Shown: positions 4,161 to 50,771, counted from the stretch's first letter. The stretch is DNA of 64,000 bases from Candidatus Multivorans sp. (GCA_965224025.1 OZ245033.1:608001-672000); one strand, 5' to 3'. Notes: a model not told the origin generated them from the letters alone. A program made the numbers and translations.

Positions 4161-6878
4161 TTACTCGGCCTCCAGCGCTCGACGAGGGTCGGCGCGAGAG
4201 GCCCGGCGGGCGGGTAGCAACGAGGCCATCGCCGCGATGGTCAGGAGCACCAGCGCCGCGACGGCGAATGCGAGCGGGTCGCGGGGAGTCCTGCCGTCGA
4301 AGAGCAGCGGTTCGACGAACCTGCCGGCCCACAACGCGGCGAGCGTGCCGGCCACGACACCGGCCGCCGCCAGCCCGAAGCCTCGCGCGAGCACCATGCG
4401 CAGGAGGCGCGACGCCCTGGCGCCCAGGGCCCGACGGATGCCGAACTCGAGTTCACGCTGGCGTACGCCGAACGCGATGACCGCGTAGAGCCCGATGGCG
4501 GCGAGGAGCACCGCCAGCGCGGCGGAGGCGCCGAACAGACGCGTTCCGATGGTCCACGTACGGATGCGCGGCGCGAACACGGTCTGGAGGCTTCGGACGC
4601 TGTGGCGCGGCAGGTCGGGGAACAGATCCGCCAGGGCGAGGAGCGTTGGCTGCACTACTCGCCCGGGGTTCCCGCGAGTCCGCACGATCAACGTACGCAT
4701 GTTGTTGACGAAGCTGGCCTGAATGGTGTTCGACGAAGCCTGGGAGATAGGCAGGTAGTAGACCGCGGCGCGGTCGGCGTCCAACAGGCCTTTGTCGAGG
4801 GCGGATTCAACGACGCCGACTACCGTCGTGCAGTCGGTGGAGGCGTCGCCGAAAAAGAGGCACTGGCCCACGGCGCCTGTGCCAGGCCAGACGCCGCGAG
4901 CAAACGTCGTGTCTACGACCGCGACCCGCTGGGTCTCCGCGCGATCCCACTCCGTAAGACCACGACCTTCCAAGACCGCCAGGCCTGCTACGCGAAAGAA
5001 GTTGGGCGTCGTGAGGCTCACATAGGGGCCTTCGGTGAACGGCAGGCGATCCAGCCCTTCGACCCGCGGTGCCGGCATCGCTGCCATCGACCACATCGGT
5101 GAGTTCGTTCCCTGGGCGACCTCGAGGACTTCCGGCAGTGACTGGAGTCGAGTCTCCAATGCGTTGATGTTGGTCTCGTGAAGCGATCTCGGGGCGCGAA
5201 AGCCCGCCAGGTCCACCGTGATCAGATTCTCCTTCGCGTAGCCGACGTCCACATGGCGCGCTGCCTCGAATGAGCGGTAGAAGATGGCCGCGCCGCTGAG
5301 CAGGATCAGCGACAGTGCGGCTTGCACGACGATCAGACCGGTACGGATCGGCATGCCGAGTACCGGGGCGCCTCGCGAACTGTCGAGCTTCTCGATGCCG
5401 CGGCTCCGCACTGCATACACGGCGGGGGCCAGGGCCGCCCCGAGGCCGATGACGAGTACGGCGGCTGCGGTGAAGCCGATCGCTGTGCCGTCCAGCGGCT
5501 CTTGGGCCCACCCAAGGCCTGGCAAGAGCGTGACCCGCAGAGGGCGGCCGGCAAGCGCGGCCACGACCAGCGCAGCTACGCCGGAGAGCGCGGAGAGCAC
5601 GACGCTCTCGATAACCAGCAGGCGTCCCACGCCCCATCTTCCCGCGCCGAGTGCATTGCGAACGGCAAGCTCCCGTCGACGGGCCGCGACCCGCACCATC
5701 AGCAGGTTCGACATGTTGGCGGTCGCGATCAGGAGCACGACCAGGGCCGCGCCGCCCACGACCAGGGGCAGGTGCATCTGACCCGGCAACGCGCCGGGTC
5801 CGCGGTTCCGCAGTAGTGGACCCAGCATCACGGTTGGCTCGGGGTCCCGTGCCTCCGGCATCCGCGAAGTGGCTCGCGCCGCGCGTACAGCGGCGGTTGC
5901 CGCGGCGGCCGCCGGTTCAGCCCTCACTCCGGGCGCCAGGCGCGCCAATGCCGTCAGGGAGAATCCAGTGAGCGACTGCCTCCATGAGTCGCCGCGGATG
6001 GCGGTGGCCGCGACCTGGAGAGGCAACCAGATCTCGGCTGCGTTGGGGTCGGGGCCGGAGAAGCCGGGCGGCAGGACGCCGACGATGACGTACGTAACGT
6101 CGTTGAAGCTGAGTCTCGAGCCGAGGGCATCGGGTGAACGCTCGAAGCCTTGCCGCCAGTAGGCATCGCTGATCACCGCGGCCGGTGTCGCCGCCGAATC
6201 GTCGTCTTCGGGTTGCAGCAGCCTGCCCAGGGCAGGTTGAATCCCCAGGAGCGCGAAGAGCTCTCCGGTTACCGAGGAAACCTGCAAGTCCTCGGCGGTC
6301 TGGCCGCGGCCGTTTTGCATCCGTACGGGAGCCGTGTAGCCGGCGACAGCGCTGAACCGGTCGGGGTCATCGCGGAGCGAGCTGAACTCCGCCCAGTCCA
6401 TTCGGTCTCTGGTGGCAGAAGGGCCCGTGAAGACCCCCCGGTCAACCGCATCGTCCCTTTCCCGCACCCAGATGCGGTGAATCCCCTCCGGATCCTCGAT
6501 GTGTGGGGGCGCCTGGAGGAACAGCCGGGAAAGCAGATCGTACGTCGCGGCGTTCAGTCCGATGCCCAGTGCCAGGGTCAGGACCACGGCGCAGGTGTAG
6601 CCGGTGTTGCGTCGCATCGTCCGGAACGAGGAGCCGATGTCCTTGAGGAGGCGCTCCACGGGCGCCCAGCCCCAGGTCTCGCGGGTCCGCTCGCGAATCA
6701 GCGTGACGTTGCCGAAGTTGCGCCGTGCCTCGGCGTGGGCCCGTTCGGGAGGCACGCCAGTCTCGATCTGTTCTTCCGTTTCCTCGGCGAGATGGAAACG
6801 GATCTCCTCGTCTAGCTCGACATCCTTGCGTCGCCGGGACCAGATGGAGCGCAGTCGGTTGTAGAGCGGCCGCAGCAT
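4161..6878 (-). CDS. ADOP/MacB-type ABC permease, copy 3
   Basis: Same motif set as copy 2. ATG 6878 (MLRPLYNRLRSIW) lies just downstream of padR. Confidence 0.93.
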   Translation of the reverse strand: MLRPLYNRLRSIWSRRRKDVELDEEIRFHLAEETEEQIETGVPPERAHAEARRNFGNVTLIRERTRETWGWAPVERLLKDIGSSFRTMRRNTGYTCAVVLTLALGIGLNAATYDLLSRLFLQAPPHIEDPEGIHRIWVRERDDAVDRGVFTGPSATRDRMDWAEFSSLRDDPDRFSAVAGYTAPVRMQNGRGQTAEDLQVSSVTGELFALLGIQPALGRLLQPEDDDSAATPAAVISDAYWRQGFERSPDALGSRLSFNDVTYVIVGVLPPGFSGPDPNAAEIWLPLQVAATAIRGDSWRQSLTGFSLTALARLAPGVRAEPAAAAATAAVRAARATSRMPEARDPEPTVMLGPLLRNRGPGALPGQMHLPLVVGGAALVVLLIATANMSNLLMVRVAARRRELAVRNALGAGRWGVGRLLVIESVVLSALSGVAALVVAALAGRPLRVTLLPGLGWAQEPLDGTAIGFTAAAVLVIGLGAALAPAVYAVRSRGIEKLDSSRGAPVLGMPIRTGLIVVQAALSLILLSGAAIFYRSFEAARHVDVGYAKENLITVDLAGFRAPRSLHETNINALETRLQSLPEVLEVAQGTNSPMWSMAAMPAPRVEGLDRLPFTEGPYVSLTTPNFFRVAGLAVLEGRGLTEWDRAETQRVAVVDTTFARGVWPGTGAVGQCLFFGDASTDCTTVVGVVESALDKGLLDADRAAVYYLPISQASSNTIQASFVNNMRTLIVRTRGNPGRVVQPTLLALADLFPDLPRHSVRSLQTVFAPRIRTWTIGTRLFGASAALAVLLAAIGLYAVIAFGVRQRELEFGIRRALGARASRLLRMVLARGFGLAAAGVVAGTLAALWAGRFVEPLLFDGRTPRDPLAFAVAALVLLTIAAMASLLPARRASRADPRRALEAE

Positions 6879-39011: not shown

Positions 39012-40121
39012 TCAGGAGCAGCCCTCGCGCGTTTCATCGATCAGGCCGTCGACGACCGCGTTCAGGTCGGCCTCTTCGGCCCGTCTCAACTGGCGGTCGG
39101 CGCTCGTGCCCTCGGCGAGGATGGTGTGGACGTACTCGGCTTCCTTGCGGATGCCGAGTTCGTCCAGTACGTCGTCGACGAACTCCATCAACTCCCGGAT
39201 CAGGAACCGTAGCGGCACCTCCTCGGCCTTGCCGAAGTCGATCATCTTGCCGTCGATGCCGTATCTCATCGCGCGCCACTTGTTCTCGTAGAGCAGGTGA
39301 CGGGGGTAGCGCCTCCAGGCCTGGTTGTTGCGGCGCAGGCGGATCAACTTGCCGACGATCGCCATGAACAGGGCCGTCAGGCACAGCGCCTCCTCGATCT
39401 TCGTGCAGACGTCGCAGACCCGGAACTCGATGGTCGGGAACTTGGGATGGGGCCGGACGTCCCACCAGATCTGGGTGGGTTCCTCGATGCATCTGGTCTG
39501 AACGAGCACGTTCACGAGCCGCTCGTACTCGGCGTAGGACCGGAGCGAGGGCGGCAGACCGGAGCGGGGGAGACTCTCGAAGACCACCGAGCGGTAGGAC
39601 TTGAGTCCGGTCTTGCGCCCCTGCCAGAGGGGCGAACTCGTCGACAGGGCGAGCAGATGGGGCAGGAAGTAGAGCGACTGGTCCATCACGTCGATGCGCA
39701 GGTCCCTGTCCGGCACCCCGACGTGGACGTGCATGCCGAAGATCAGCATGCGCCGGGCGACGTCGCCGAAGTTCTCCTGCAGAGTGATGTAGCGCTGGGC
39801 ATCGGTGACGTCCTGCTCGCGCCAGGAGGAGAAGGGATGGGTGCTGGCGGCGGCGATTCGGAGGCCGTTGCGGGACGCCAGGTGGGAAATCGATCGCCGC
39901 AGGCGGATGAGTTCCTGGCGGGCCTCCCCGATCGTGCGGCAGACGTCGCTGCCCACTTCGACCTGGCACTGCAACTGCTCCGCCTTGATCTGCTCCTGGA
40001 GAACGATCTGACCCTGTTCGAGGAACTTCTGGATGAAGGGCTTCAGTTCCCGGCTCTCCGGGTCGATGATCTGGTACTCCTCCTCGATGCCGATCGTCAG
40101 CTCGGGAAGCTTCGTCTGCAT
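39012..40121 (-). CDS. ybdK: Carboxylate-amine ligase (GCS2/YbdK family)
   Basis: TIGIEEEYQ, FGMHVHVG, LLALSTSSP, WWDVRPHP, TIEFRVCD, ENKWRA.RYG. Confidence 0.95.
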   Translation of the reverse strand: MQTKLPELTIGIEEEYQIIDPESRELKPFIQKFLEQGQIVLQEQIKAEQLQCQVEVGSDVCRTIGEARQELIRLRRSISHLASRNGLRIAAASTHPFSSWREQDVTDAQRYITLQENFGDVARRMLIFGMHVHVGVPDRDLRIDVMDQSLYFLPHLLALSTSSPLWQGRKTGLKSYRSVVFESLPRSGLPPSLRSYAEYERLVNVLVQTRCIEEPTQIWWDVRPHPKFPTIEFRVCDVCTKIEEALCLTALFMAIVGKLIRLRRNNQAWRRYPRHLLYENKWRAMRYGIDGKMIDFGKAEEVPLRFLIRELMEFVDDVLDELGIRKEAEYVHTILAEGTSADRQLRRAEEADLNAVVDGLIDETREGCS

Positions 40122-40269
40122 GGTTCTTCTCCTCTACAGGGGAAGTTGTGCCTGGACTAGGAACGCTCGCAAGACTATCCGGCTGTGCTGGATGAGGGCC
40201 GGCGTTGCGGCCGCCCGAGCCGGTCTTTGCGGGAGCCCGCCTCCTCGCTCTGATACCGTCCCCGACTCA

Positions 40270-42051
40270 ATGAGCTGGTTCGCGACCATTGCCTCGCGTC
40301 CGCTTGTTCGTCGCCTGATCGCCGGCTGCCTCGCCCCCGCCGTCCTGCTCGGAGTCGCCTGCACCGGGGCTGAATCGGCGCGCGATGCCGAGGGCACTTC
40401 GGCCTGGAGCCTTGAAGGCAAGGCGCTGGCAGCGGAAGGGGAGCACGGGATGGTCGTCAGTGGTCATGGTCTGGCCTCCGAAGCCGGCGCCCGCGTCCTG
40501 GAACGGGGCGGCAACGCGATCGACGCGGCGGTGGCGGTCGGCTTCGCCCTGGCGGCGGTGCTGCCGGCTGCGGGCAACATCGGCGGCGGCGGCTTCCTGG
40601 TCCACCGGTCGAACGACGGCGAGATCCGCGCGCTCGACTACCGCGAGAAGGCGCCCGGAGCCGCCACCCGGGACATGTTCCTCGACGACAATGGCAAGGT
40701 CACCGAAAGCGCGGTCATCGGCCATCTTGCGGCCGGCGTGCCCGGATCCGTGGCCGGGCTGTGGGAGATGCACCGGGGGTACGGCTCCATGGCCTGGGTC
40801 GATCTGGTGGCCCCCGCGATCGAGTTTGCCCGCGGCCACGAGGTCGACGAGGTCCGGTCGCGGAGCCTCGGGTCGGCGGCCGAACGGCTCAACCGGTTTC
40901 CGGCCAGCGCCGAGCAGTTCCTGAACGCTGGCGAGGCGCCGGCGCCGGGGACGCTGCTGGAACAGCCCGACCTGGCAGCCACCCTGACGGCGATCGCCGA
41001 GCAGGGTCCGGACGGCTTCTACCGTGGCCCGGTCGCCGACCTGATCGTGGCCGAGATGGAGAGGGGCGGAGGCCTCATTTCGCACCAGGATCTCGCGGAC
41101 TACGCGCCGGTCTGGCGGGCGCCGGTCGAGGTCGAGTACCGCGGCCACACGATTTACTCCATGCCGCCGGTTTCGTCCGGCGGCTTGACCCTGGGCCTGA
41201 TCCTGAACGTGCTGGAGGGCTGGGATTCCCTGCCTCCGTTCGGCAGCGCCGAGCTGATCCACCTGGAGGCCGAAACGATGCGGCTCGCGTTCCGTGACCG
41301 CAACACGTTGCTCGGCGACCCGGACTTCGTCGACGTGCCGCGGGCCCAGTTCGAGTCCCAGGACTACGCCGGCGGGCTGCGGGCGCAAATCGATCCGGAC
41401 CGGGCGCAGCCGCTGCCACCGGTCGAGGTGGCGCCGCCGCGGGAAAGCACCGAGACGACGCACTACTCCGTGGTGGACCGCTGGGGCAACGCGGCCTCGA
41501 TCACCACCACGATCAACAGCGGCTACGGCAACGCGGTCACGGTCACCGGCGCCGGGTTCCTGCTCAACAACGAGATGGACGACTTCGCGGCCTCGCCGGG
41601 CCAGCCGAACCAGTTCGGGTTGGTGGAGGGCGAGAACAACGCGATCGTCCCCGGCAAACGGATGCTGTCGTCGATGACCCCGAGCATCGTCCTCGACCCG
41701 GAGGGCGAACTGATGATGGTTGTGGGCACCCCCGGCGGCCCGACGATCATCACCACCGTCTACCACGTGATCTCGAACGTTATCGACCACGGCATGACCC
41801 TGCGGGAGGCGGTCGAGAGTCCGCGGGTGCATCATCAGGCGTGGCCGGACCAGGTGTTCTACGAGGAAGGCGGTCTTTCCGCCGAAACGCTCGAGGGTCT
41901 GGCCGCGCGCGGCCACGAGCTGTTCGAGCGCGGCTTGAGCGGCGACGTGTCGGCGATCCGGGTGAGGGAAGAGGCGCTCGTCGGCGTCGCCGATCCGCGG
42001 CGGGGAGGCGGCGTCAGCGCGCCGCGGGGAGAGGCGCCCGCGGGCGGGTAG
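40270..42051 (+). CDS. ggt: Gamma-glutamyltransferase
   Basis: GGNAIDAAVA, GNIGGGGF, DYREKAP, ETTHYSVVD nucleophile, LNNEMDDF, KRMLSSMTP, GTPGG. Confidence 0.97.
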   Translation: MSWFATIASRPLVRRLIAGCLAPAVLLGVACTGAESARDAEGTSAWSLEGKALAAEGEHGMVVSGHGLASEAGARVLERGGNAIDAAVAVGFALAAVLPAAGNIGGGGFLVHRSNDGEIRALDYREKAPGAATRDMFLDDNGKVTESAVIGHLAAGVPGSVAGLWEMHRGYGSMAWVDLVAPAIEFARGHEVDEVRSRSLGSAAERLNRFPASAEQFLNAGEAPAPGTLLEQPDLAATLTAIAEQGPDGFYRGPVADLIVAEMERGGGLISHQDLADYAPVWRAPVEVEYRGHTIYSMPPVSSGGLTLGLILNVLEGWDSLPPFGSAELIHLEAETMRLAFRDRNTLLGDPDFVDVPRAQFESQDYAGGLRAQIDPDRAQPLPPVEVAPPRESTETTHYSVVDRWGNAASITTTINSGYGNAVTVTGAGFLLNNEMDDFAASPGQPNQFGLVEGENNAIVPGKRMLSSMTPSIVLDPEGELMMVVGTPGGPTIITTVYHVISNVIDHGMTLREAVESPRVHHQAWPDQVFYEEGGLSAETLEGLAARGHELFERGLSGDVSAIRVREEALVGVADPRRGGGVSAPRGEAPAGG

Positions 42052-42120
42052 CGGGCCGCGCATGAGTGCTCGGCGCTTCCTGGCTGCGGAGACGTCACGC
42101 CGCGTGGTTGGCGAGATCCC

Positions 42121-45100
42121 ATGAGTGGCCGGCGCATCTTCGCCGCGGTGACGGTCGGTCACCTCGGAATCGACATCTTCAACAGCATGGGGCCGGTGCT
42201 GCTGGCCTTCCTGAAGGCGCCGCTCGGCTTGAGCGCCGCGCAGATCGGGCTTGCGGTGGGACTGTTCCAGGTCCTGGCCGGCACCACGCAGCCGGCCTTC
42301 GGCTGGCTGGTCGACCGGGTCGGCAGCCGCTTCCTGGGACCGTTCAGCGTCGCCTTCAACCTGGGGTGCATGGCGCTGGCGGTCGCTGCCGCCGCCGCGA
42401 CGGGGAGCTTCGGGCTGTTCCTCATTCCGTTCGCCCTCGCCGCGGTCGCCTCCGGCGCCTTCCATCCCCTGGGCGTGATGCACTCCAGTACGGTGAACGT
42501 GGCCCGCTCGGCCACGTTCACCGCCATCTTCTTCTTCTGCGGTCAGGTCGGGCTCACGACCGGGCCGTACCTGGCGGGGCTGGCTCTTGACCGGGCGGGG
42601 CTGACCGGGATCTTCTGGCTCGTGCTGATCGTGGCGCCCGTGCCTCTGTTCATGGCCTTCGCGATGGGGCCGCGACGATTCCACGCGGCGCCCCTGGCGG
42701 CGCAGCCGGAGGAGAAGCCGGAGGCTGCCGGTTCCGGAACTCCCGGCCCGCGGCCCCCCGTGCGGGTCGGGTTGATGGCCCTCCTGGCCCTCGTGTTCGC
42801 CAGCCGGTCCTGGGCGGTTTTCGGAACGATCGCGTTTCTTCCCCTCCTGCTGGCCGAACAGGGCTTCAGCTCCAGAGCCCAGGGACTCGCCAGCGGCATG
42901 TTTCTGCTGGGCGGCGCGGTGACCGCCGTCTTCGCCGGGGAATGGGCTGACCGCTGGGGTCGACGTCCGGTGGTCTTCCTGACCACGTTGCTCGGCGCCC
43001 TGCTCCTGGTCTTCCTGCCCGGCTCCGGCAACTGGACCTTTGCGCTGGCGCTGCCGTGCGGGGCCCTGCTGGGAGCGTCGCACTCGATTCTGATCGTCAT
43101 GGCCCAGTCGCTGCTGCCCTGGCGCCGGGGCCTGGCCTCGGGGACGGCGCTCGGCTTCCTGTTCGCGACCGGCGGGATCGCCACCTGGACGATCGGGGAA
43201 CTCGCCGATCGCTTCGAACTGGCCGCCGTGCTGCAGGCCGGCGCCGTCGTGGGCCTCGTGTCCGCCTGCGCCTCGCTGCTCCTGCCGAAACGGGAGCCGG
43301 CGCGACTGGCCGCGGCGCCGGCGGTTACGGCGGTGGTCGTGCTCGCGGTCGCGGCTTCGGTTCTTGCCTCGCCGCGACCGGCGTGGGCCCAGTTGAACGG
43401 CGAGATCAACGGGCAGGTGCGGAACGAGGCCACCGGAGAGCCTCTCGCCGGAGCCGAGATAAGAATCACGGGGGAGCAGTTGTACAGCCCGAGGATCGTC
43501 CGTGTCGGTGCCGGCGGCGGTTACCGGGCGCCGGGGCTGCCGCCCGGCAGCTACGGCGTGGAGGCGAGCCTGGAGGGGTTTGCGACCTCCGCGGCGGAGA
43601 ACCTGATCCTGGTCACCGGCGGTGTGCTGAGGGTCGACTTCGGTCTTCGCGCCGGCGGAGCCTCGAGTCTCGACTTCGTGTCGTCGCCCCTGCTCGACAT
43701 GGTCACCGGCAGCGACGGCAACGTTCTGACCGGAGACGACCTGCGGGAACTGCCCGGCTCGACGGCGGCGGTGAACCTGGACCTCGCCACGGGTCTGGAC
43801 GCGGTTGCCGGCGGACTGGCGGTCAGCGGCTGGTCTCCCGGACTCGCCAACTATCGGATCGACGGACAGGAAACGGCCATCGCTACCCGCGAAGCGACAG
43901 CGGTGGACCTCCATTGGGTCGATCAGGTACGCGTGCGGACGATGGACTTCGGGGCGGCTCTGGCCGGCCCGCACATCGACCTGATCACGCGGACCGGCGA
44001 CACGGCCTGGCGGGTGAACGGCGGCCTGTCGGCTGTCGAGCCGCTGGACCGGGCCGAGAGGCCGGCTCTGCGCCAGCAGGCCGGTGAGCAGGTTTCCTTC
44101 GGCGGCACCGACAGCAGGAAGATCTTCGGCGAAGAGGCCTACGTCTTCGTCGGCGGACCTCTGCGCGACGAGCGCGCGAGGGCGTTCGGCGGCCATTCGG
44201 TGGGCCGGGCCAGCGGCGTCTTCGATCTGTTCCTGGCCGGCGCGCCACTGACATGGCGGGAGACGACGGAGCTGTCGGTGGGCAAACTGGACTGGTGGGC
44301 CGGTTCGGCCAGCAACCTGAGCCTCAAGCATCACGAGGGGTCCACGGAACTGGATGGCCGTCGGCCCGCCCTGCTGGTGCTTCCCGACGGCGACGGTGTC
44401 GAGAGCAGGCGTTCCAGTCACCAGACGACGAGTCTGAACATCGAGTGGGGCATCACGGATCGGCTGTGGCTCCGGCTCTTCGGCGGCCGCTCCGACCTTC
44501 GCGATCGCGCCGATCCCTGGCAGGACACGGGCGCCTACTTCGTGGCGCCGGCCCCGGGTTTCGTCGCGGGCTCTTTGCGCCCCCGGGCCGCGGGCCCGCT
44601 GCGGCGGTTGGCGGCTCGCCGGAACTGGGCCGTGGAACCGTCGTTCTTCCTGTTCGATCACACGCTGGAGGTCGGCGTTCAGGGTACCCGCGGCGATCTG
44701 CAACTGCTGCGCTCCGATCATCCGGGACGGGAACTGCGGATTCCCGGCGGCCCCCTGCCGGACTGGCGCGGCGAGCCTCTCGGAGCGGGCGGTTTGCGGC
44801 AGGAGAAGCGGGCGCTCTATGTCCAGGACGCCTGGCGCCTGGCGGGAGTGTTCGACAGGCGCCTGACTCTGCATCTCGGCTTGCGCGCCGAGAAGGAGTC
44901 GACCGGGCCGCTCGAACTCGGCCTCGGCGATCGCACGGAACCCCGGATGGGCTTCGTCTGGGACGTCACCGAACGCGGCAAGTGGAAGGTCTACGGAGGC
45001 GCTGCCTGGTGGCACGTGGACGCCTACCGCCCCGTAGCCGGTCTAGCGGGCATCGACGGACTCGCGGCATTGCGGACGGCGGGATACTCCGGTTCGCCCC

Positions 45101-46068
45101 TGGTCTTCGAGCATGCCGCCGTCGATTCCGACCTGCGTCCCGGGCGGGTGCGGGAGGTCCAGTTGGGAACGAGATACCAGTTTCTGCCGGACGTGGTGAT
45201 TTCCGCGCGCCTTGCCCGTCGCCGGCTGCGCGACGGCATCCGGCTGGTTCCGGTGGAAGATGGCGGCGCGATCGTGCCGACGCTCCTGACGCCCGGCTTG
45301 GGCGCCGGTATGGGCGCCTGGGGAGGCGCGAGCCGCGATCTGCCGCGGCTGCAGCAGGACTGGTGGGGCGCCGAGCTCGGCGCGAACGTCGGTTTCGACC
45401 CGGCCTGGCGCGTTCACTTCACCTATCTTCTGAGTCGGCTTACGGGCAACCACGAGGCCGGCGGCCTGGCGCTCCAGGCCTTCAGTGGCACGGATGTTCA
45501 TCCGGGCGTGGCGGCGTTGGACCTCTGCTCGTCGCCGGTGCCCTGTGACGTCTTCGACGTGACAAACGAGAGTCGGCGCCTCGGAGTCGACCGCGAGCAC
45601 CAGCTCGCCGGCTGGCTCGTGCTGTCTCCCGGCGACCGGTTGGTTGCGGCCCTCGTCTACCGGTTCCGCACCGGCGGGTCGTACGTTCCGCGGACCATGG
45701 CGGTACGGGTCGACGAGGAGAACCGGATTCTCAGCACCGGACTCGCTCCGTTGCCTCCCGGTCCGGAGACACCGGTCAAGAGTTCGGACCTGAAGCGGGC
45801 GGACCTCGCGGTGACTCTGCGCATCCCCCTGCGCTCCGAGCATCGGCGGCTCGCGTTCTTCGCCGAGGCGCTGAACATCTTCGACCAGGACGCCGCCACC
45901 GAGCTCTGGCCCCTCGCCTACTTCGACCCGGTGCTGATCGGCGCTGGGGCCGGAAGCGCCGCGGACGCCGTCGCCGAGCAGCAGCCCAGGCGGGACGGCC
46001 GGGAAGGCCTCCCGGCAGCGTTCCAGAACAGCCGGCGGGTGCGGGCCGGGTTGCGGCTCCAGTTCTGA
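42121..46068 (+). CDS. MFS transporter (Fsr-like) fused in frame to a TonB-dependent-receptor-like outer-membrane protein
   Basis: aa 1 to about 390: MFS with QPAFGWLVDRVG, SGAFHP, ADRWGRR. Then a signal-peptide-like segment ending AWA-Q, a GEINGQV..GEPLAGA..LPPGSYGVEASLEGF domain, YVQDAWR..LTLHLGLR, PRMGFVWD, and the terminus RRVRAGLRLQF. Confidence 0.85.
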   Translation: MSGRRIFAAVTVGHLGIDIFNSMGPVLLAFLKAPLGLSAAQIGLAVGLFQVLAGTTQPAFGWLVDRVGSRFLGPFSVAFNLGCMALAVAAAAATGSFGLFLIPFALAAVASGAFHPLGVMHSSTVNVARSATFTAIFFFCGQVGLTTGPYLAGLALDRAGLTGIFWLVLIVAPVPLFMAFAMGPRRFHAAPLAAQPEEKPEAAGSGTPGPRPPVRVGLMALLALVFASRSWAVFGTIAFLPLLLAEQGFSSRAQGLASGMFLLGGAVTAVFAGEWADRWGRRPVVFLTTLLGALLLVFLPGSGNWTFALALPCGALLGASHSILIVMAQSLLPWRRGLASGTALGFLFATGGIATWTIGELADRFELAAVLQAGAVVGLVSACASLLLPKREPARLAAAPAVTAVVVLAVAASVLASPRPAWAQLNGEINGQVRNEATGEPLAGAEIRITGEQLYSPRIVRVGAGGGYRAPGLPPGSYGVEASLEGFATSAAENLILVTGGVLRVDFGLRAGGASSLDFVSSPLLDMVTGSDGNVLTGDDLRELPGSTAAVNLDLATGLDAVAGGLAVSGWSPGLANYRIDGQETAIATREATAVDLHWVDQVRVRTMDFGAALAGPHIDLITRTGDTAWRVNGGLSAVEPLDRAERPALRQQAGEQVSFGGTDSRKIFGEEAYVFVGGPLRDERARAFGGHSVGRASGVFDLFLAGAPLTWRETTELSVGKLDWWAGSASNLSLKHHEGSTELDGRRPALLVLPDGDGVESRRSSHQTTSLNIEWGITDRLWLRLFGGRSDLRDRADPWQDTGAYFVAPAPGFVAGSLRPRAAGPLRRLAARRNWAVEPSFFLFDHTLEVGVQGTRGDLQLLRSDHPGRELRIPGGPLPDWRGEPLGAGGLRQEKRALYVQDAWRLAGVFDRRLTLHLGLRAEKESTGPLELGLGDRTEPRMGFVWDVTERGKWKVYGGAAWWHVDAYRPVAGLAGIDGLAALRTAGYSGSPLVFEHAAVDSDLRPGRVREVQLGTRYQFLPDVVISARLARRRLRDGIRLVPVEDGGAIVPTLLTPGLGAGMGAWGGASRDLPRLQQDWWGAELGANVGFDPAWRVHFTYLLSRLTGNHEAGGLALQAFSGTDVHPGVAALDLCSSPVPCDVFDVTNESRRLGVDREHQLAGWLVLSPGDRLVAALVYRFRTGGSYVPRTMAVRVDEENRILSTGLAPLPPGPETPVKSSDLKRADLAVTLRIPLRSEHRRLAFFAEALNIFDQDAATELWPLAYFDPVLIGAGAGSAADAVAEQQPRRDGREGLPAAFQNSRRVRAGLRLQF

Positions 46069-46104
46069 TTGATCTACCCGGCGGGGGAGAGGGGCGTCAG
46101 CGCC

Positions 46105-46491
46105 CTACCACGAGATCCGCACCGGATACTGGGAGACCAGCCTGTCCGGTGTGACCAGCGTCATCCCGTGCTCGATCGCCTGGCAGATCAGTAGGCGGTC
46201 GAAGGGGTCCTTGTGGAGGGGCGGGAGACGTTGTAGCTGCAGAGCGCTCGCTTCATCGAAGGGAAGGCTCTCAAAACCGTGGCGCCTGCGCTGTTCGGGC
46301 ACGAAGAGCTGAGGATCCTGTGGTAACGGCAATCGGCCGAGTCCGTGTTTCACGGCGATTTCCCAAGCCGATGATGCGCTGAGATATACGGTGTACGCCG
46401 GGTCGGACACGGAGCTTCGGACGGTCGCCGGCAGCCTGCGGTCATCCAGGCACCACCAGAGGAAGGTGCAGGTGTCGAGTAGCAGCTTCAC
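46105..46491 (-). CDS. vapC: VapC PIN-domain toxin
   Basis: MKLLLDTCTFLW, SSAWEIAVK, HKDPFDRLLICQA. GTG overlaps the antitoxin stop. Confidence 0.95.
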   Translation of the reverse strand: MKLLLDTCTFLWWCLDDRRLPATVRSSVSDPAYTVYLSASSAWEIAVKHGLGRLPLPQDPQLFVPEQRRRHGFESLPFDEASALQLQRLPPLHKDPFDRLLICQAIEHGMTLVTPDRLVSQYPVRISW

Positions 46492-46745
46492 TCGCCGGGG
46501 AAGACCGGTCCGTTCTCGAAGGCTTCGATGAAGTCGTCCGGCAGCGGATCGAAGAACGACTCCGGGATCGTGAACTGTCCGCGGCACAGTCCAATGGGTC
46601 GGGGCTTCTTGCGCTCCCGCGGCAGCGGCCGGATCTCGGCGACCGGCTTGTTGCGACGGCAGAGGATGATCGTCTCGCCTTCCTTGAGTTCGGCGATGTG
46701 GTGGGACAGGTGGGTCTTCGCTTCGTGCATGTTGAGGCGCTTCAT
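46488..46745 (-). CDS. Phd/YefM-family antitoxin
   Basis: NMHEAKTHLS..GETIILCRRNKPVAEIRP..FFDPLPDD. Confidence 0.93.
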   Translation of the reverse strand: MKRLNMHEAKTHLSHHIAELKEGETIILCRRNKPVAEIRPLPRERKKPRPIGLCRGQFTIPESFFDPLPDDFIEAFENGPVFPGE

Positions 46746-46922: not shown

Positions 46923-49649
46923 CTACACTAGGCCGCTCAACCGCCGGAGCGCCGCCAGCAGGTCGGGCTTCTTCGTCAACACACCGCGCAGCGGGTCGGT
47001 CTTGAGCTTCTTCAACCGTTCGGGCAGCGACCGGATGTCGTGGTTTCGCAGGTCGAGGCCGGGTTTGACCTCGGACCAGCGGAGCGGCGTCGAGACCGGG
47101 GCGGCGGGCAACGGCCTGACGCTGAACGGGGCGACGAGCAACCGGCCGCGGCCGTTCTGGACGAAATCGATGTAGACCCTGCCGCCGCGGCGTTCGGGGT
47201 TGCGGGTGACGGTGGCGATGTCGGGCAACTGGCGGCAGATGATCTGGGCGATGAGTTGGCCGAGGCCGCGGGACTGTTCGAAGGTGCAGGCGCCGCCGAG
47301 CGGCAGGAGCACGTGCAGGCCGCTTGAACCGCTGGTCTTGACGAAGCTGGGCAGCTTGATCCGCCGGCACAGGCGGCGGATGGCCACGGCGATCTTGATC
47401 ACGTCCTCGAACGGGGCGTCCTTGGGGTCGAGGTCGAGGATGCACCAGTCGGGCTGGCCGAGCTGGTGCAGCCGGCTCGACCAGACGTGGAGGACGATCG
47501 CGCCCAGGTTGGCGATGTAGATCAGGCTCTCCCGGTCTTGGCAGACGAAGTAGTCGACTTCCTTGTCCGTTCGCGGGCTGACGAGCTTGACCGTGTGCAG
47601 CCAGTCGGGCGCGAAGTCGGGTGCGTTCTTCTGGAAGAACGATTTGCCATCGATTCCGTCGGGGTAGCGGGTCATCACCAGCGGACGGTCGGTGAGGTAG
47701 GGCTGCATCGCGTCGGCGATGGCGGCGTAGAAGTCGATCAGGTCGCCTTTGGTGTAGCCCTCGGCGGGCCAGAACACCTTGGACCTGTTCGTCACCTCGA
47801 CGCGGCGCTCGGGCGGTGGCGGCGGGTCGGTGCCCGGGGCTCGCGGCCCGGCGCGGCGCACGCAGTCCTCGATCGGCTTGTCGTCCCGCAGCCGGAGGAA
47901 GACCGGGTGCCGGAGCATGCCGTGGGGCGTCCACTCCTTGTAGCGGACCTCGCAGATCAGTTCCGGGTTCGGATCGATCCAGGTCTGGTCTTCGATCCGG
48001 CCGTCCAGGAGATCGTCGTCGGTGAGAACGGCCGCGGCCGGCGGGTCCGTCGACGGCGAACCGCAGGAGTTCGGGGTTGTCGGGGAGGCGTTCGCGCTCG
48101 CGGGGCTCGCCTGAGCGTCCTCGACCCCTCGCGGCGCGCGGCAGGGCGGGGTTTCGCGGCGCAGCGTGCCCAGGCGTTCCGCCAGCTCCGCCAGGTCCGC
48201 ATCGCTGAAGCCCGTGCCGACACGCCCGGCGTAGACCAGTCCACCCTGCTCGCCGCTGCCCGGCCGTCCAGGTGCGAGCTCCGGGTCCCAGACGGCGAGG
48301 TGCAGCGAGCCCAAGCCGACCCGGCTGCCCTTGGGAGGCGACATGCCGACGATCACGAGGTCGGCCGTCTGCTCGGTGCGGAGCTTGACCCACGACGACG
48401 AGCGGCGGCCGACGTAGAGGGAGTCGCCGTCCTTGGCCATCGCTCCCTCGAGTCCCATGGCCGTCACCTGCTCGAAGAACGCCTCGCCCCGTTCCTCGAT
48501 GTGGTCCGAGTAACGGAGCGGTCCGGCCGGGGGCAGCACCTTCGCCAGCAGGGCCTTGCGTTCCAGGAGCGGCAGCGACCGCAGGTCCGATCCCTCGAAC
48601 GCCACGAGATCGAAGGCGAACAGGGTCGCGGGCCGGCGCACCGCGGCTCGTTCGATGTCGACCGGGCGGCTGAGCAGGGCGCGCGTCTGCAACCGGGCGA
48701 AGCTCGGCCTGCCGCCGACGTTGAGGACCGTGACCTCGCCGTCCAGGACGAGAGACCGCACCGGCAGCGCCCGCAGGGACCGGGTGAGCTCCGGGTAGAG
48801 CGCGGTCACGTCGCCGCCGTTCCGGTAGCGAAGGAAGACGCTGCCGCCTTCCTTCGCCGCCACCAGCCGGTAGCCGTCGTACTTCAACTCGTAGATCCAG
48901 CCTTCGCGGGAGAACGGCCGGTCGCCGGTGACCGCGAGCATCAACGGCAGCGAGCGCGGATCGACCCGCCGGCGGCGCGCTTCCGAGGCGCCGACCTCGA
49001 CGCGAACCTCCTCGATTCGCTCGCAGCCGTCCCGGAGCTCCTCGACGGTCAGGCCGGAGAGCACGGACTGCTGCGCCAGGTCGTCCTCGCCGCCGTCCGC
49101 GCCGGCCCCGTCGTTCGCACCGTCGCCCGATTGCGGCCGCGCGGCGGCGTCCGGCTTCTTCATCAGCAACCACTGGCTGCCGTCCTCCGTCTGGCGGCGG
49201 CCGTCGGTGCGGAACAGGGTCCAGACGCCGCGCAACTTGTAGCCGTGGAGTTCAAAGAGGAGCTTGCCGTTCTCCATGCCGGCGACCGGGTCCTCGAGCG
49301 GCCTCCAGCGCCCGCCGTCCCACACGATCATCGCCCCGGCGCCGTAGTTGCCGGCGGGGATCGATCCCTCGAAGTCGGCGTACTCCAGCGGGTGGTCCTC
49401 GGTGGCCACCGCCAGACGCTTGACCTCGGGGTCGAGGCTGGGCCCCCTCGGTACGGCCCAGGACTTCAGCGTGCCTTCGAGTTCCAGGCGCAGGTCGAAG
49501 TGGACGCGGCGGGCGGCGTGCTTCTGGACCACGAAGCGGCCGGCGCCGGTCCCCGTCGCGGGACCGAAAGGCTCCGGCGTCGCCTCGCTCGATCGCTTGC
49601 GGCGGTAGGCCTCGAGATTGCCGCTGTGCGGGCCAGGCATCCGCGGCAT
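46923..49649 (-). CDS. ligD: NHEJ DNA ligase D (phosphoesterase-ligase-polymerase)
   Basis: FVVQKHAARRVHFDLRLE (PE domain), ELKYDGYR (ligase), RYPDGI, DLDP, KTSGSSGLH (polymerase). Confidence 0.96.
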   Translation of the reverse strand: MPRMPGPHSGNLEAYRRKRSSEATPEPFGPATGTGAGRFVVQKHAARRVHFDLRLELEGTLKSWAVPRGPSLDPEVKRLAVATEDHPLEYADFEGSIPAGNYGAGAMIVWDGGRWRPLEDPVAGMENGKLLFELHGYKLRGVWTLFRTDGRRQTEDGSQWLLMKKPDAAARPQSGDGANDGAGADGGEDDLAQQSVLSGLTVEELRDGCERIEEVRVEVGASEARRRRVDPRSLPLMLAVTGDRPFSREGWIYELKYDGYRLVAAKEGGSVFLRYRNGGDVTALYPELTRSLRALPVRSLVLDGEVTVLNVGGRPSFARLQTRALLSRPVDIERAAVRRPATLFAFDLVAFEGSDLRSLPLLERKALLAKVLPPAGPLRYSDHIEERGEAFFEQVTAMGLEGAMAKDGDSLYVGRRSSSWVKLRTEQTADLVIVGMSPPKGSRVGLGSLHLAVWDPELAPGRPGSGEQGGLVYAGRVGTGFSDADLAELAERLGTLRRETPPCRAPRGVEDAQASPASANASPTTPNSCGSPSTDPPAAAVLTDDDLLDGRIEDQTWIDPNPELICEVRYKEWTPHGMLRHPVFLRLRDDKPIEDCVRRAGPRAPGTDPPPPPERRVEVTNRSKVFWPAEGYTKGDLIDFYAAIADAMQPYLTDRPLVMTRYPDGIDGKSFFQKNAPDFAPDWLHTVKLVSPRTDKEVDYFVCQDRESLIYIANLGAIVLHVWSSRLHQLGQPDWCILDLDPKDAPFEDVIKIAVAIRRLCRRIKLPSFVKTSGSSGLHVLLPLGGACTFEQSRGLGQLIAQIICRQLPDIATVTRNPERRGGRVYIDFVQNGRGRLLVAPFSVRPLPAAPVSTPLRWSEVKPGLDLRNHDIRSLPERLKKLKTDPLRGVLTKKPDLLAALRRLSGLV

Positions 49650-49814: not shown

Positions 49815-50771
49815 ATGCCTGCTCGTACCATTGGCGCCGGCACCGTATCGTTCGGCTTGGTCTCGATTCCGGTTCGCTTGTACTCCACGTCGGAGACCTC
49901 GGGCGCGGTGCGCTTCAACATGCTGGACCCGACGGACAACACGCGGGTCAAGCAGCAGTTGGTCAACCAGCGGACCGGCACCGAGGTGAAGCGCAAGGAG
50001 ACGATCAAGGGTTACGAGTTCGGCAAGGGGCAGTACGTCACGTTCAGCAACGAGGAGATCAAGGAACTCCAGGAGAAGGCCTCGCCGGCGATCGAAATCA
50101 CCGAGTTCGTGCCGCTTGCGGAAGTCGAGCCGATCTACTTCGAGAAGTCGTACTACCTGGGGCCGGAGAAGGGCGGCGAGCGCGCCTACCGGCTGCTCAG
50201 CGAGGCAATGCGGAAGGCGGGCCGCTCGGCGCTGGCCAAGCACGCGGCCCGCGGCAAGCAGTATCTCGTCATGTTGCGGCCGTACGCGCAGGGCCTGCTC
50301 ATGCAGCAACTGAAGTACGAGGACGAGTTGAAGTCCTTCGGCGAAGTGCCCCTGGGTGAAGAGACGGAGCTCAAGCCCGGCGAACTCGACCTCGCCGTGC
50401 AACTGATCGAGCAGATTGCCTCCGACGAGTTCACGCCCGAGCAGTACACGGACGAAGTGCGCAAGCGGCTGTGGGAGGCGATTCAGAGCAAGATCGAGGG
50501 CCGCGAGGTGGCCGAGGACGAAACGGAGGCGCCGCAGGCGCAGATCATCGACCTGATGGAGGCGCTCAAGGCGAGCCTCTCGAAGGACGGCGACGGCGAC
50601 AAGGAGTCGGCTGCCCGCAAGCCGAAGGCCGGCTCGCGCAAGGCCGGTTCCCGAAAGGCCGGGGCCGATGCCAAGGCGGCCAAGAAGAAAGCCGCCGGCA
50701 GCAAGACGACTAGCAAGAAGCGCACGCGCCGGGCGAAGACGGAACCGGCGCGCAGGACCGCGGTTGGTTGA
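49815..50771 (+). CDS. ku: NHEJ Ku protein
   Basis: SFGLVSIPVRLY, IKGYEFGKGQYV, YFEKSYYL, IIDLMEALKASL, Lys-rich tail. Confidence 0.96.
   Translation: MPARTIGAGTVSFGLVSIPVRLYSTSETSGAVRFNMLDPTDNTRVKQQLVNQRTGTEVKRKETIKGYEFGKGQYVTFSNEEIKELQEKASPAIEITEFVPLAEVEPIYFEKSYYLGPEKGGERAYRLLSEAMRKAGRSALAKHAARGKQYLVMLRPYAQGLLMQQLKYEDELKSFGEVPLGEETELKPGELDLAVQLIEQIASDEFTPEQYTDEVRKRLWEAIQSKIEGREVAEDETEAPQAQIIDLMEALKASLSKDGDGDKESAARKPKAGSRKAGSRKAGADAKAAKKKAAGSKTTSKKRTRRAKTEPARRTAVG

Follow-up and report, generated by a model that had tools for sequence, protein, structure and literature searches.

Background

Outer-membrane beta-barrels are normally made as separate precursors, each with an N-terminal signal peptide. 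The locus analyzed here raises the question of how such a barrel may be made and exported when it shares one uninterrupted reading frame with an inner-membrane transporter. The stretch of DNA under study (hereafter the window) comprises 64,000 nucleotides (nt) of Candidatus Multivorans sp. (GCA_965224025.1 OZ245033.1:608001-672000), from a genus of uncultured Acidobacteria. Positions 42121..46068 (+) hold a single open reading frame (ORF) with an ATG start, 1315 codons plus a stop codon and 0 internal stops, in which a predicted major facilitator superfamily (MFS) transporter is followed by a predicted TonB-type barrel. An original prediction, made from the nucleotide sequence of the window, read this ORF as a candidate self-processing polyprotein whose halves are joined by an internal signal peptide, with a tethered envelope-spanning channel or a recent deletion as alternatives.

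In this work we analyze the fused gene through comparative genomics, structural modeling and codon-level analysis of related loci. Our results reveal that the fusion is genuine and old, neither an artefact nor a recent lesion. They further suggest that its product is probably a polyprotein that signal peptidase I would cut into a 13-helix MFS protein and a free barrel, a reading that we weigh below against an uncleaved tether, internal initiation of translation and gene decay.

Conservation of the fused gene

Translation of the window returned the frame, the quoted residues and the position of Q424, which begins at nt 43390, exactly as first described. The junction reads …LLLPKREPARLAAAPAVTAVVVLAVAASVLASPRPAWA, followed directly by QLNGEINGQVR…, and the chain ends in …RAGLRLQF. 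Chance long open frames are common at the G+C content of the window (~70%); despite this, 42121..46068 can be taken as a gene on the basis of 37 uninterrupted orthologs and of three domain families above their Pfam cut-offs in the whole ORF, namely MFS_1 (95.2 bits vs a cut-off of 33.4), CarboxypepD_reg (PF13620, residues 429-509; 52.9 bits vs 32.3) and TonB_dep_Rec_b-barrel (PF00593, residues 766-1097; 38.6 bits vs 27).

Six-frame searches recovered an uninterrupted match to residues 1 (or 2) to 1315 in 38 of 42 genomes of the genus, at 65-92% identity, so that the fusion is fixed across the genus. A whole-length database search gave 36 matches, 32 of which (31 besides the query) cover 100% of the query at 1300-1336 amino acids (aa) and 69-88% identity. 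The named matches come from Holophagales or Acidobacteria metagenome bins and are called only 'MFS transporter', an annotation that at present hides the fused architecture in public databases. Outside the family, a word-based search with the MFS half among proteins of 723-2302 aa yielded 34 matches, all from the same family and with the fused domain set, and no other lineage. A HMMER search with residues 393-1315 against 1.84 billion representative proteins gave 6732 matches at E<=0.001; none of the best 150 carries an MFS-sized N-terminal extension except the family's own representative, the long proteins among them being multi-repeat CarboxypepD_reg proteins, and distant fused forms may rank lower among the 6732. 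The ESM Atlas returned only stand-alone barrel clusters (score 0.75, lead level only).

The junction is equally continuous in other assemblies. Two Logan run contigs, X1 (4028 nt, covering 42195-46100) and X2 (3235 nt, covering 42195-45429), show 0 differences from the window; their runs are possibly the window's own source, which makes them a separate assembly of an organism that is not independent. Contigs from two other studies, ~90% identical to the window (X3, 579 nt, 43140-43718; X4, 1265 nt, 43051-44303), cross the junction with 0 gaps. The ratio of nonsynonymous to synonymous substitution rates (dN/dS) was computed by the Nei-Gojobori method for 10 pairs among 11 of the 12 retrieved loci, the same 11 being used for all codon analyses and the frameshifted L010 being set aside. 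It amounts to 0.10-0.23 for the MFS half and 0.14-0.24 for the outer-membrane part at dS of 0.24-0.98, and both halves are under purifying selection.

These data bear directly on the possibility that the two genes became one through an indel introduced in sequencing or assembly, or through a recent deletion, with one half left non-functional. A single nucleotide separates the fused state of the junction spacer (18 nt) from the split state (17 nt), and frame breaks occur in three genomes. Nevertheless, the independent run contigs contain no indel at the junction, relatives across the genus carry the intact fusion, neither half evolves neutrally even at dS up to ~1, and the only copy split at the junction is secondary, being nested among fused copies in trees of both halves. 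Each of the three outcomes named beforehand as refuting the original prediction (an indel at the junction, separate genes in all relatives, a neutrally evolving barrel) is contradicted by these results. We consider artefact or decay extremely improbable as an explanation of the locus.

Predicted architecture of the two halves

The AlphaFold2 (AF2) model of residues 1-530 has a predicted local distance difference test (pLDDT) score mostly above 90 over residues 1-390, where it contains twelve helices (2-35, 39-67, 72-94, 97-124, 127-159 and 162-182 in the first half; 216-246, 251-279, 281-296, 303-331, 336-364 and 367-385 in the second) separated by a central loop at 183-215. Foldseek matches this half to the MFS proteins sialin, NorA, DgoT, FLVCR1 and GlpT (TMt 0.70-0.81). 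Lysine and arginine residues number 18 on the predicted cytoplasmic side vs 6 outside. MFS motif A is of the type G-x-x-x-D-R-x-G-R-K/R and lies in cytoplasmic loops 2-3 and 8-9; motif-A-like loops are found here at GWLVDRVGSR (61-70) and GEWADRWGRR (273-282), both on the cytoplasmic side, with D65 invariant and R70, R278 and R282 conserved in at least 90% of 81 aligned sequences. Helix topology, charge bias and motif-A loops together place the C-terminus of helix 12 and the PKREPAR segment in the cytoplasm, an orientation that fits N-in/C-out insertion of the next hydrophobic segment. Stand-alone MFS orthologs are ~400 aa long, from which it follows that the MFS half is complete, and comparison thus supports the complete transporter with a cytoplasmic C-terminus that had been proposed.

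Homologs bear the Joint Genome Institute (JGI) name 'FSR family fosmidomycin resistance protein-like MFS transporter'. The best NCBIfam subfamily model scores 26.5 bits vs a cut-off of 375 on the MFS half, and a PDB sequence search with this half gave 0 matches at E<=0.01. A terminator scan flagged a site in the MFS coding sequence (42491-42523, +; near residues 124-135) where two 14-bp arms form a perfect inverted repeat around a 5-nt loop.

The second half is predicted to be a complete plug-and-barrel TonB-type transporter with an N-terminal CarboxypepD_reg sandwich, in an Oar-like layout. Modeled by AF2 from an 88-row alignment, the 892-aa mature part reaches a mean pLDDT of 84.2 and a predicted template modeling score (pTM) of 0.85. 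Foldseek on the mature barrel returns TonB-dependent transporters throughout, with YddB first (E 1.9e-53) and FptA among the matches. VIA-align gives Z 37.0 to Cir, and aligns plug and barrel of BtuB (residues 6-594) to model residues 73-892 with Z 36.5 over 521 of 549 residues and a root-mean-square deviation of 3.0.

The CarboxypepD_reg domain starts 5 residues past the predicted cleavage site. Between this domain and the plug lies a candidate TonB box, SSLD[FL]VSS (515-522), which is conserved in the 12 of 35 family members compared; in the model, its mature residues 94-96 adopt a short strand. The beta-signal closes the chain with an aromatic residue, and the final RLQF is identical in all 11 compared members, out of 35, that reach the C-terminus. 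The nearest outside relatives share 31% identity, stand alone and are ~990 aa long. Modeling and selection are thus consistent with the full TonB-type transporter first proposed for this half.

The linker as an internal signal peptide

The halves are joined by residues 393-423, which we compared across 35 homologs with 29 distinct 31-residue linkers. Small residues at -3 and -1 are the classical pattern of a signal peptidase I site (von Heijne's rule). Relative to the predicted site, position -1 is A in 35/35 homologs and position -3 is A in 34 and V in the remaining one, with eight different residues (W, T, R, H, A, V, S, M) at position -2. Position +1 is Q, G or S and never P, and P occupies -4 in 30 of the 35. 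In these homologs the mature start LNGEINGQVR never changes, in contrast to a freely varying hydrophobic core, and 9 of 10 pairs show a higher rate of evolution in the linker (dN/dS 0.23-1.49, a noisy estimate from 31 codons) than in the domains on either side. The absence of Cys at +1 indicates that the linker is not a lipoprotein signal, and no general twin-arginine motif is found in it.

The same genome encodes 8 stand-alone Oar-like paralogs, each beginning with an ordinary signal peptide. Six of them have an A-x-A/Q site (the slash marks the predicted cut) in exact alignment with AWA/Q424, and the paralog mature start, Q-x-x-G-x-[ILV]-x-G-x-V, aligns with QLNGEINGQV. On this comparative evidence the linker is homologous to N-terminal Sec signal peptides and retains the signal-peptidase-I site rule, in agreement with the internal signal originally proposed. 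The further proposal of self-processing finds no such agreement; the cut would come from the cell's signal peptidase I, for which the genome has 2 genes, alongside 1 BamA gene and 9 TonB_C matches.

Proposed synthesis, export and processing of the fused chain

There is neither a stop codon nor an ATG at the junction, as had been stated; the in-frame start-type codons are GTG at codons 370, 377, 380, 405 and 407 and TTG at 425. Initiation of a separate barrel from GTG370, GTG380 or the relic codon 396, with the read-through product as a by-product, would have three observations in its favor: every one of the 11 loci has GTG at codon 370; codon 396, the counterpart of the ancestral start, is GTG or TTG in 2 of them; and the split copy G011 offers its barrel frame nothing but a CTG that overlaps the stop of the MFS gene (CTGA).

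No in-frame ATG, GTG or TTG beside the signal is conserved across the 11 loci, however: codon 380 is GTG in 9 and GTC or GTA in 2, codon 396 is CTG in 9, and codons 405 and 407 vary. Nor is there the loss of synonymous variation upstream of the junction that marks a true start, invariant residues being encoded by 2.0-2.4 different synonymous codons around the junction, equal to the gene average, vs 1.65-1.74 at the true 5' end. Termination-reinitiation is impossible where there is no stop codon, and a start at 370 would put a whole extra helix ahead of the signal. Internal initiation therefore appears very unlikely, and the fused chain is the only evident route to the barrel in most species. 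Since the barrel is under selection and has no other evident route, its export would have to use the internal signal.

How this could proceed, including the steps of internal-signal translocation, cleavage and final location, we infer from what is generally established for Sec, signal peptidase I and the beta-barrel assembly machinery (BAM). The ribosome would make a single 1315-aa chain, whose 12-helix Fsr-like MFS part would insert co-translationally into the inner membrane and end in the cytoplasm at the PKREPAR loop. Segment 396-416, the presumed former signal peptide of the downstream gene, would enter SecYEG in the N-in/C-out orientation and start translocation of the 892-aa part. Signal peptidase I would then cut after A-W-A423, and the MFS protein would retain the signal segment as its 13th helix, ending in a periplasmic tail of seven residues. 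The freed CarboxypepD_reg-plug-barrel would reach BamA through its C-terminal beta-signal and become an Oar-type TonB-dependent outer-membrane transporter.

The alternative in which the chain stays whole, with residues 396-416 as a permanent 13th transmembrane anchor and the barrel covalently attached to the MFS part in one envelope-spanning protein, shares every step up to the cut. The hydrophobic stretch is long, up to ~21 residues, cleavage is a prediction from sequence, and a fusion would guarantee the co-location of both transporters. An anchor, on the other hand, does not require a pattern in which -1 and -3 are small while -2 is free, and yet this pattern holds in 35/35 homologs with 29 distinct linkers. 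The geometry is also unfavorable, since the beta-sandwich begins 5 residues past the site and ~100 residues, mostly folded sandwich, lie between membrane exit and plug, leaving ~10-20 flexible residues before the plug, by our own estimate too short to bridge the periplasm. Finally, G011 has the two halves in different frames, both intact at dN/dS ~0.3, and sister genera encode them as separate proteins. The tethered channel that the original prediction offered as an alternative is hence unlikely, and less likely than cleavage.

Several observations weigh against the proposed cleavage model. The site is called from the -3/-1 rule and from homology, and the hydrophobic stretch, ~21 residues if LAAAPA is counted, is long for a cleaved signal and could favor a stable anchor. 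The 13th helix (400-415) is modeled at a low pLDDT of 55-62. Codon V370, upstream of the junction, is GTG throughout, at the start of helix 12 and in loci that are kin. Pfam Plug has no match at E<=0.1 in the fused ORF, and OMP_b-brl_4 (PF25183) reaches only 16.2 bits vs a cut-off of 30. Four of the 42 genus genomes (G008, G011, G012, G017) lack an intact fusion: in G008 the gene is interrupted by contig ends, and the broken copies may mean that the barrel is dispensable in some lineages, or may be assembly errors. G012 (L010/L015) and G017 (L014) both keep an intact MFS half; their frame breaks fall in the barrel half, one in G012 near residues 1096-1103 and two in G017 near 637-657 and 816-819.

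A bolder extension of the cleavage model would make barrel export obligatorily co-translational and targeted by the signal recognition particle via the MFS part, with the 13th-helix tail or the MFS periplasmic face remaining bound to CarboxypepD_reg to form a coupled 1:1 two-membrane conduit. We think this improbable. A complex prediction for the MFS part (residues 1-423) and the first 140 mature barrel residues scored 0.00, which is no answer and counts neither way. Were such a conduit to exist, it would be a novel construction principle for trans-envelope transport and would give the Oar-type N-terminal domain its first assigned role.

Origin from a coupled gene pair

Relatives outside the genus indicate how the fused frame may have arisen. 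The MFS ortholog occurs alone, at 50-60% identity and ending near query residue 392-400, in fifteen genomes that represent 12 further genera of the family to which the window's genus belongs, and no close barrel ortholog was found in these 15 genomes at E<=1e-40. Gene neighborhoods were compared for 11 of the 15 (all but G041, G044, G045 and G047). Six of these 11 loci have, directly downstream of the MFS gene, a second gene whose 711-853-aa product begins with a signal peptide and a CarboxypepD_reg domain, above the Pfam cut-off in 6/6, and has a beta-signal-like C-terminus, again in 6/6. Compared with the window's genome, 5 of these 6 barrels match the barrel half of the fusion best, at a weak E-value of 2e-7 to 2e-13, the weakness of the matches implying that the barrels evolve fast.

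In four of the six loci the two genes overlap by stop and start, as ATGA in G054, GTGA in G051 and G053 and TTGA in G072. The junction in G049 has AGGAGG and a TTG start a few bases past the MFS stop, and that in G050 a ~40-nt spacer with a short tandem repeat. Tandem repeats after the stop of the stand-alone MFS gene have units of ~25 nt in G042 (L016) and 12-15 nt in G050 (L021).

Because sister genera keep overlapping MFS-barrel pairs, we conclude from these comparisons that the ancestral state is a translationally coupled gene pair and that the fusion derives from it. The fused form likely originated through a frame-joining indel just 5' of the NTGA overlap. Codon 396 of the fused genes, which aligns with the old barrel start, is CTG in 9/11, GTG in 1/11 and TTG in 1/11 loci, and an out-of-frame NTGA, with A still following codon 396, persists in 3 of 11; this codon is probably a relic of the start codon of the barrel gene. 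Of the recent deletion that had been suggested, the mechanism accordingly fares well, in the shape of this likely indel, but the age does not, given a dS of up to ~1 among fused copies.

A split copy and recombination between the halves

The copy in G011 (L013, ~5560-5600, minus strand) is the only one split exactly at the junction. Its MFS part ends in …LPEPEREP followed by TGA, and its barrel frame reads …T-L-K-A-G-P-P-L-S-A-V-V-V-A-L-T-I-V-P-G-L-F-R-A-Q-P-A-C-A/G-L-N-G-E-I-N-G, with the slash at the predicted cut. The CTG of the CTGA overlap is the sole start-like codon of this frame, no canonical start being nearby, and the database protein for this barrel (P0036, 868 aa) begins past the signal. 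The spacer whose two states differ by one nucleotide runs between the codons for LP and for L396, with 17 nt in G011 vs 18 nt in fused genes.

Trees of each half were built from 32 full-length family proteins plus G065 and G011, without the partial P0031, P0034, P0035 and P0036, and with 15 outgroups for the MFS tree chosen from 120 listed stand-alone MFS proteins. Fused copies surround G011 in both trees: it is sister to P0033 in the MFS tree (support 99/85) and, in the barrel tree, whose root was set on stand-alone relatives, falls inside a clade with a Shimodaira-Hasegawa-like approximate likelihood ratio (SH-aLRT) support of 100. G011 as a survivor of the ancestral split state was rejected on the strength of this nesting in both trees. 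The split may be a secondary one-base change, may reflect use of the CTG as a start by coupling, or may be an assembly error. A real split would show that both halves can persist as chains of their own.

The halves do not always share one history. Relative to the window, P0007 and P0008 have 66-68% identity in the MFS half, 88-90% in the barrel and 81-84% in the signal, while P0013-P0020 have ~84% in the MFS half and 68% in the barrel. P0007 and P0008 fall in different clades of the MFS and barrel trees, each with 100% support. Such discordance points to recombination near the junction, with the signal peptide moving with the barrel half.

Gene neighborhood and candidate substrate

Table 1. 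Coordinates of the fused gene, its predicted parts and the upstream neighbor within the window
Feature	Position	Strand	Basis
Whole fused ORF	42121..46068	+	1315 codons + stop; uninterrupted in 38/42 genus genomes
Fsr-like MFS domain, residues 1-392, 12 predicted transmembrane helices, both termini cytoplasmic	42121..43296	+	Pfam, AF2, Foldseek, K+R count
Basic cytoplasmic n-region PKREPAR, residues 389-395	43285..43305	+	2-3 K/R in 8/9 sampled linkers
Predicted h-region = 13th helix, residues 396-416	43306..43368	+	Hydropathy peak 2.32; AF2 helix 400-415
c-region SPRPAWA, predicted signal-peptidase-I site A423/Q424 (nt 43389/43390)	43369..43389	+	-3/-1 rule, paralog alignment
CarboxypepD_reg beta-sandwich, residues 429-509, N-terminal extension of barrel protein	43405..43647	+	Pfam; AF2 pLDDT 85-91
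Candidate TonB box SSLDFVSS, residues 515-522	43663..43686	+	Conservation; short strand in model
Plug domain (approximate), residues ~523-653	43687..44079	+	VIA-align to BtuB
Predicted TonB-type beta-barrel, residues ~659-1315	44095..46065	+	Pfam, AF2, Foldseek, VIA-align
C-terminal beta-signal …RAGLRLQF	46036-46065	+	Conserved C-terminus
Upstream gamma-glutamyltranspeptidase (GGT) gene, probable operon partner	40270..42051	+	Pfam G_glu_transpept 544.6 bits

The features of the locus are collected in Table 1. The GGT gene ends 69 nt upstream of the fused ORF; its open frame spans 40033-42051 (+), and its start is placed at Met80, which would give the enzyme a hydrophobic export signal. GGT lies directly upstream of the fusion in 15/15 genus genomes examined, and ~1.4 kb upstream in 4 of the 6 sister loci that have a barrel gene. 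In sister loci L019, L022, L024 and L026, a gene of ~400 aa with a GGDEF-like C-terminus (motif identified by eye) stands between GGT and MFS; it is not there in the window's genus. Divergent from GGT is a GCS2-family glutamate-cysteine-ligase-like gene (39012-40121, -), and a GCS2 gene also adjoins GGT in G011.

No siderophore genes are found in the neighborhood of the fusion. A promoter and terminator scan of 39800-46700 was uninformative, with 0 promoter-like sites and 4 terminator-like sites vs 3.0 expected. Downstream of the fusion lie a PIN-domain gene (46105-46587, -), present in 5 of 14 other genus genomes examined, and a non-homologous end-joining locus composed of a full LigD gene with phosphoesterase, ligase and primase-polymerase domains (46923-49649, -) and a Ku gene (~49850-50771, +).

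The pairing of MFS and barrel is older than their fusion, which argues for one common substrate. The GCS2 and GGT neighbors hint at a gamma-glutamyl or glutathione theme, and it can be proposed, tentatively, that the barrel imports a gamma-glutamyl compound, that periplasmic GGT processes it and that the MFS part takes up the product. Two facts speak against this proposal: the gamma-glutamyl substrate is suggested by gene neighborhood only, and 5 of 11 sister loci have the MFS gene with neither a barrel gene nor GGT nearby. Transport may also run in the direction of export, to which both the Fsr name and the precedent of Oar (PMC6434023) point. The conserved neighbor links both halves to a probably exported GGT and provides a concrete pathway hypothesis, and the fusion may serve as a 'Rosetta stone' between an Fsr-like MFS protein and a single branch of the Oar-like family of Acidobacteria, which is very large and poorly understood.

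Comparison with known systems

A literature search found no description of an MFS-TonB-receptor fusion or of a polyprotein destined for inner and outer membranes. What the family displays is a TonB-type barrel that seems makeable only as the C-terminal 892 residues behind a 12-helix inner-membrane transporter, an arrangement kept through deep divergence within the genus. If the cleavage model is correct, the fused gene would be a natural bacterial polyprotein supplying two different membranes. It would then offer a test case for the handling by SecYEG and SecA of a very long periplasmic domain after a polytopic protein, for the use of internal signals by signal peptidase I and for co-translational delivery of an outer-membrane precursor.

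The closest parallel in processing is FbcH of Bradyrhizobium japonicum, a cytochrome b/c1 precursor that joins a polytopic inner-membrane protein, through an internal signal peptide, to another exported protein and is reported to be split by signal peptidase. The fused ORF resembles it in having a polytopic part that is predicted to end in the cytoplasm and an internal signal with n-, h- and c-regions and small residues at -1 and -3. Both FbcH products, however, stay in the inner membrane in one complex, whereas the second product of the fused ORF would be an 892-aa outer-membrane barrel that crosses the periplasm and needs BamA.

In function, the family may be compared with FptA/FptX and RhtA/RhtX, uptake pairs of a TonB-dependent receptor and an MFS permease that act in series on one substrate and are encoded by separate genes. 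As in these pairs, a TonB-type barrel and an MFS transporter are encoded side by side, but theirs are separate genes and proteins, and the fusion has GGT and a GCS2-family ligase as neighbors in place of siderophore genes. The MFS half shares with the Fsr family a ~400-aa domain, 12 helices and the JGI names, yet it is near no NCBIfam subfamily model, and the family name gives neither direction nor substrate.

The barrel half has the signal peptide, CarboxypepD_reg, plug and barrel of Oar-like proteins, a layout also found in the 8 stand-alone paralogs of the same genome; the Oar-like signal peptide is N-terminal, whereas that of the fused protein is internal, behind a 12-helix MFS. Oar of Myxococcus xanthus is reported to be needed for secretion of the protease PopC (PMC6434023). 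Internal signal peptides that direct processing are likewise described for the bunyavirus glycoprotein precursor, which host signal peptidase cuts into separate membrane proteins (PMC7926653). The viral case belongs to the eukaryotic endoplasmic reticulum and its products share one membrane, whereas the fused ORF would represent a bacterial case with two membranes. The fusion of operon-partner genes and the polyprotein with an internal signal are thus both known kinds of arrangement, and what is notable here is that the two products would belong to different membranes.

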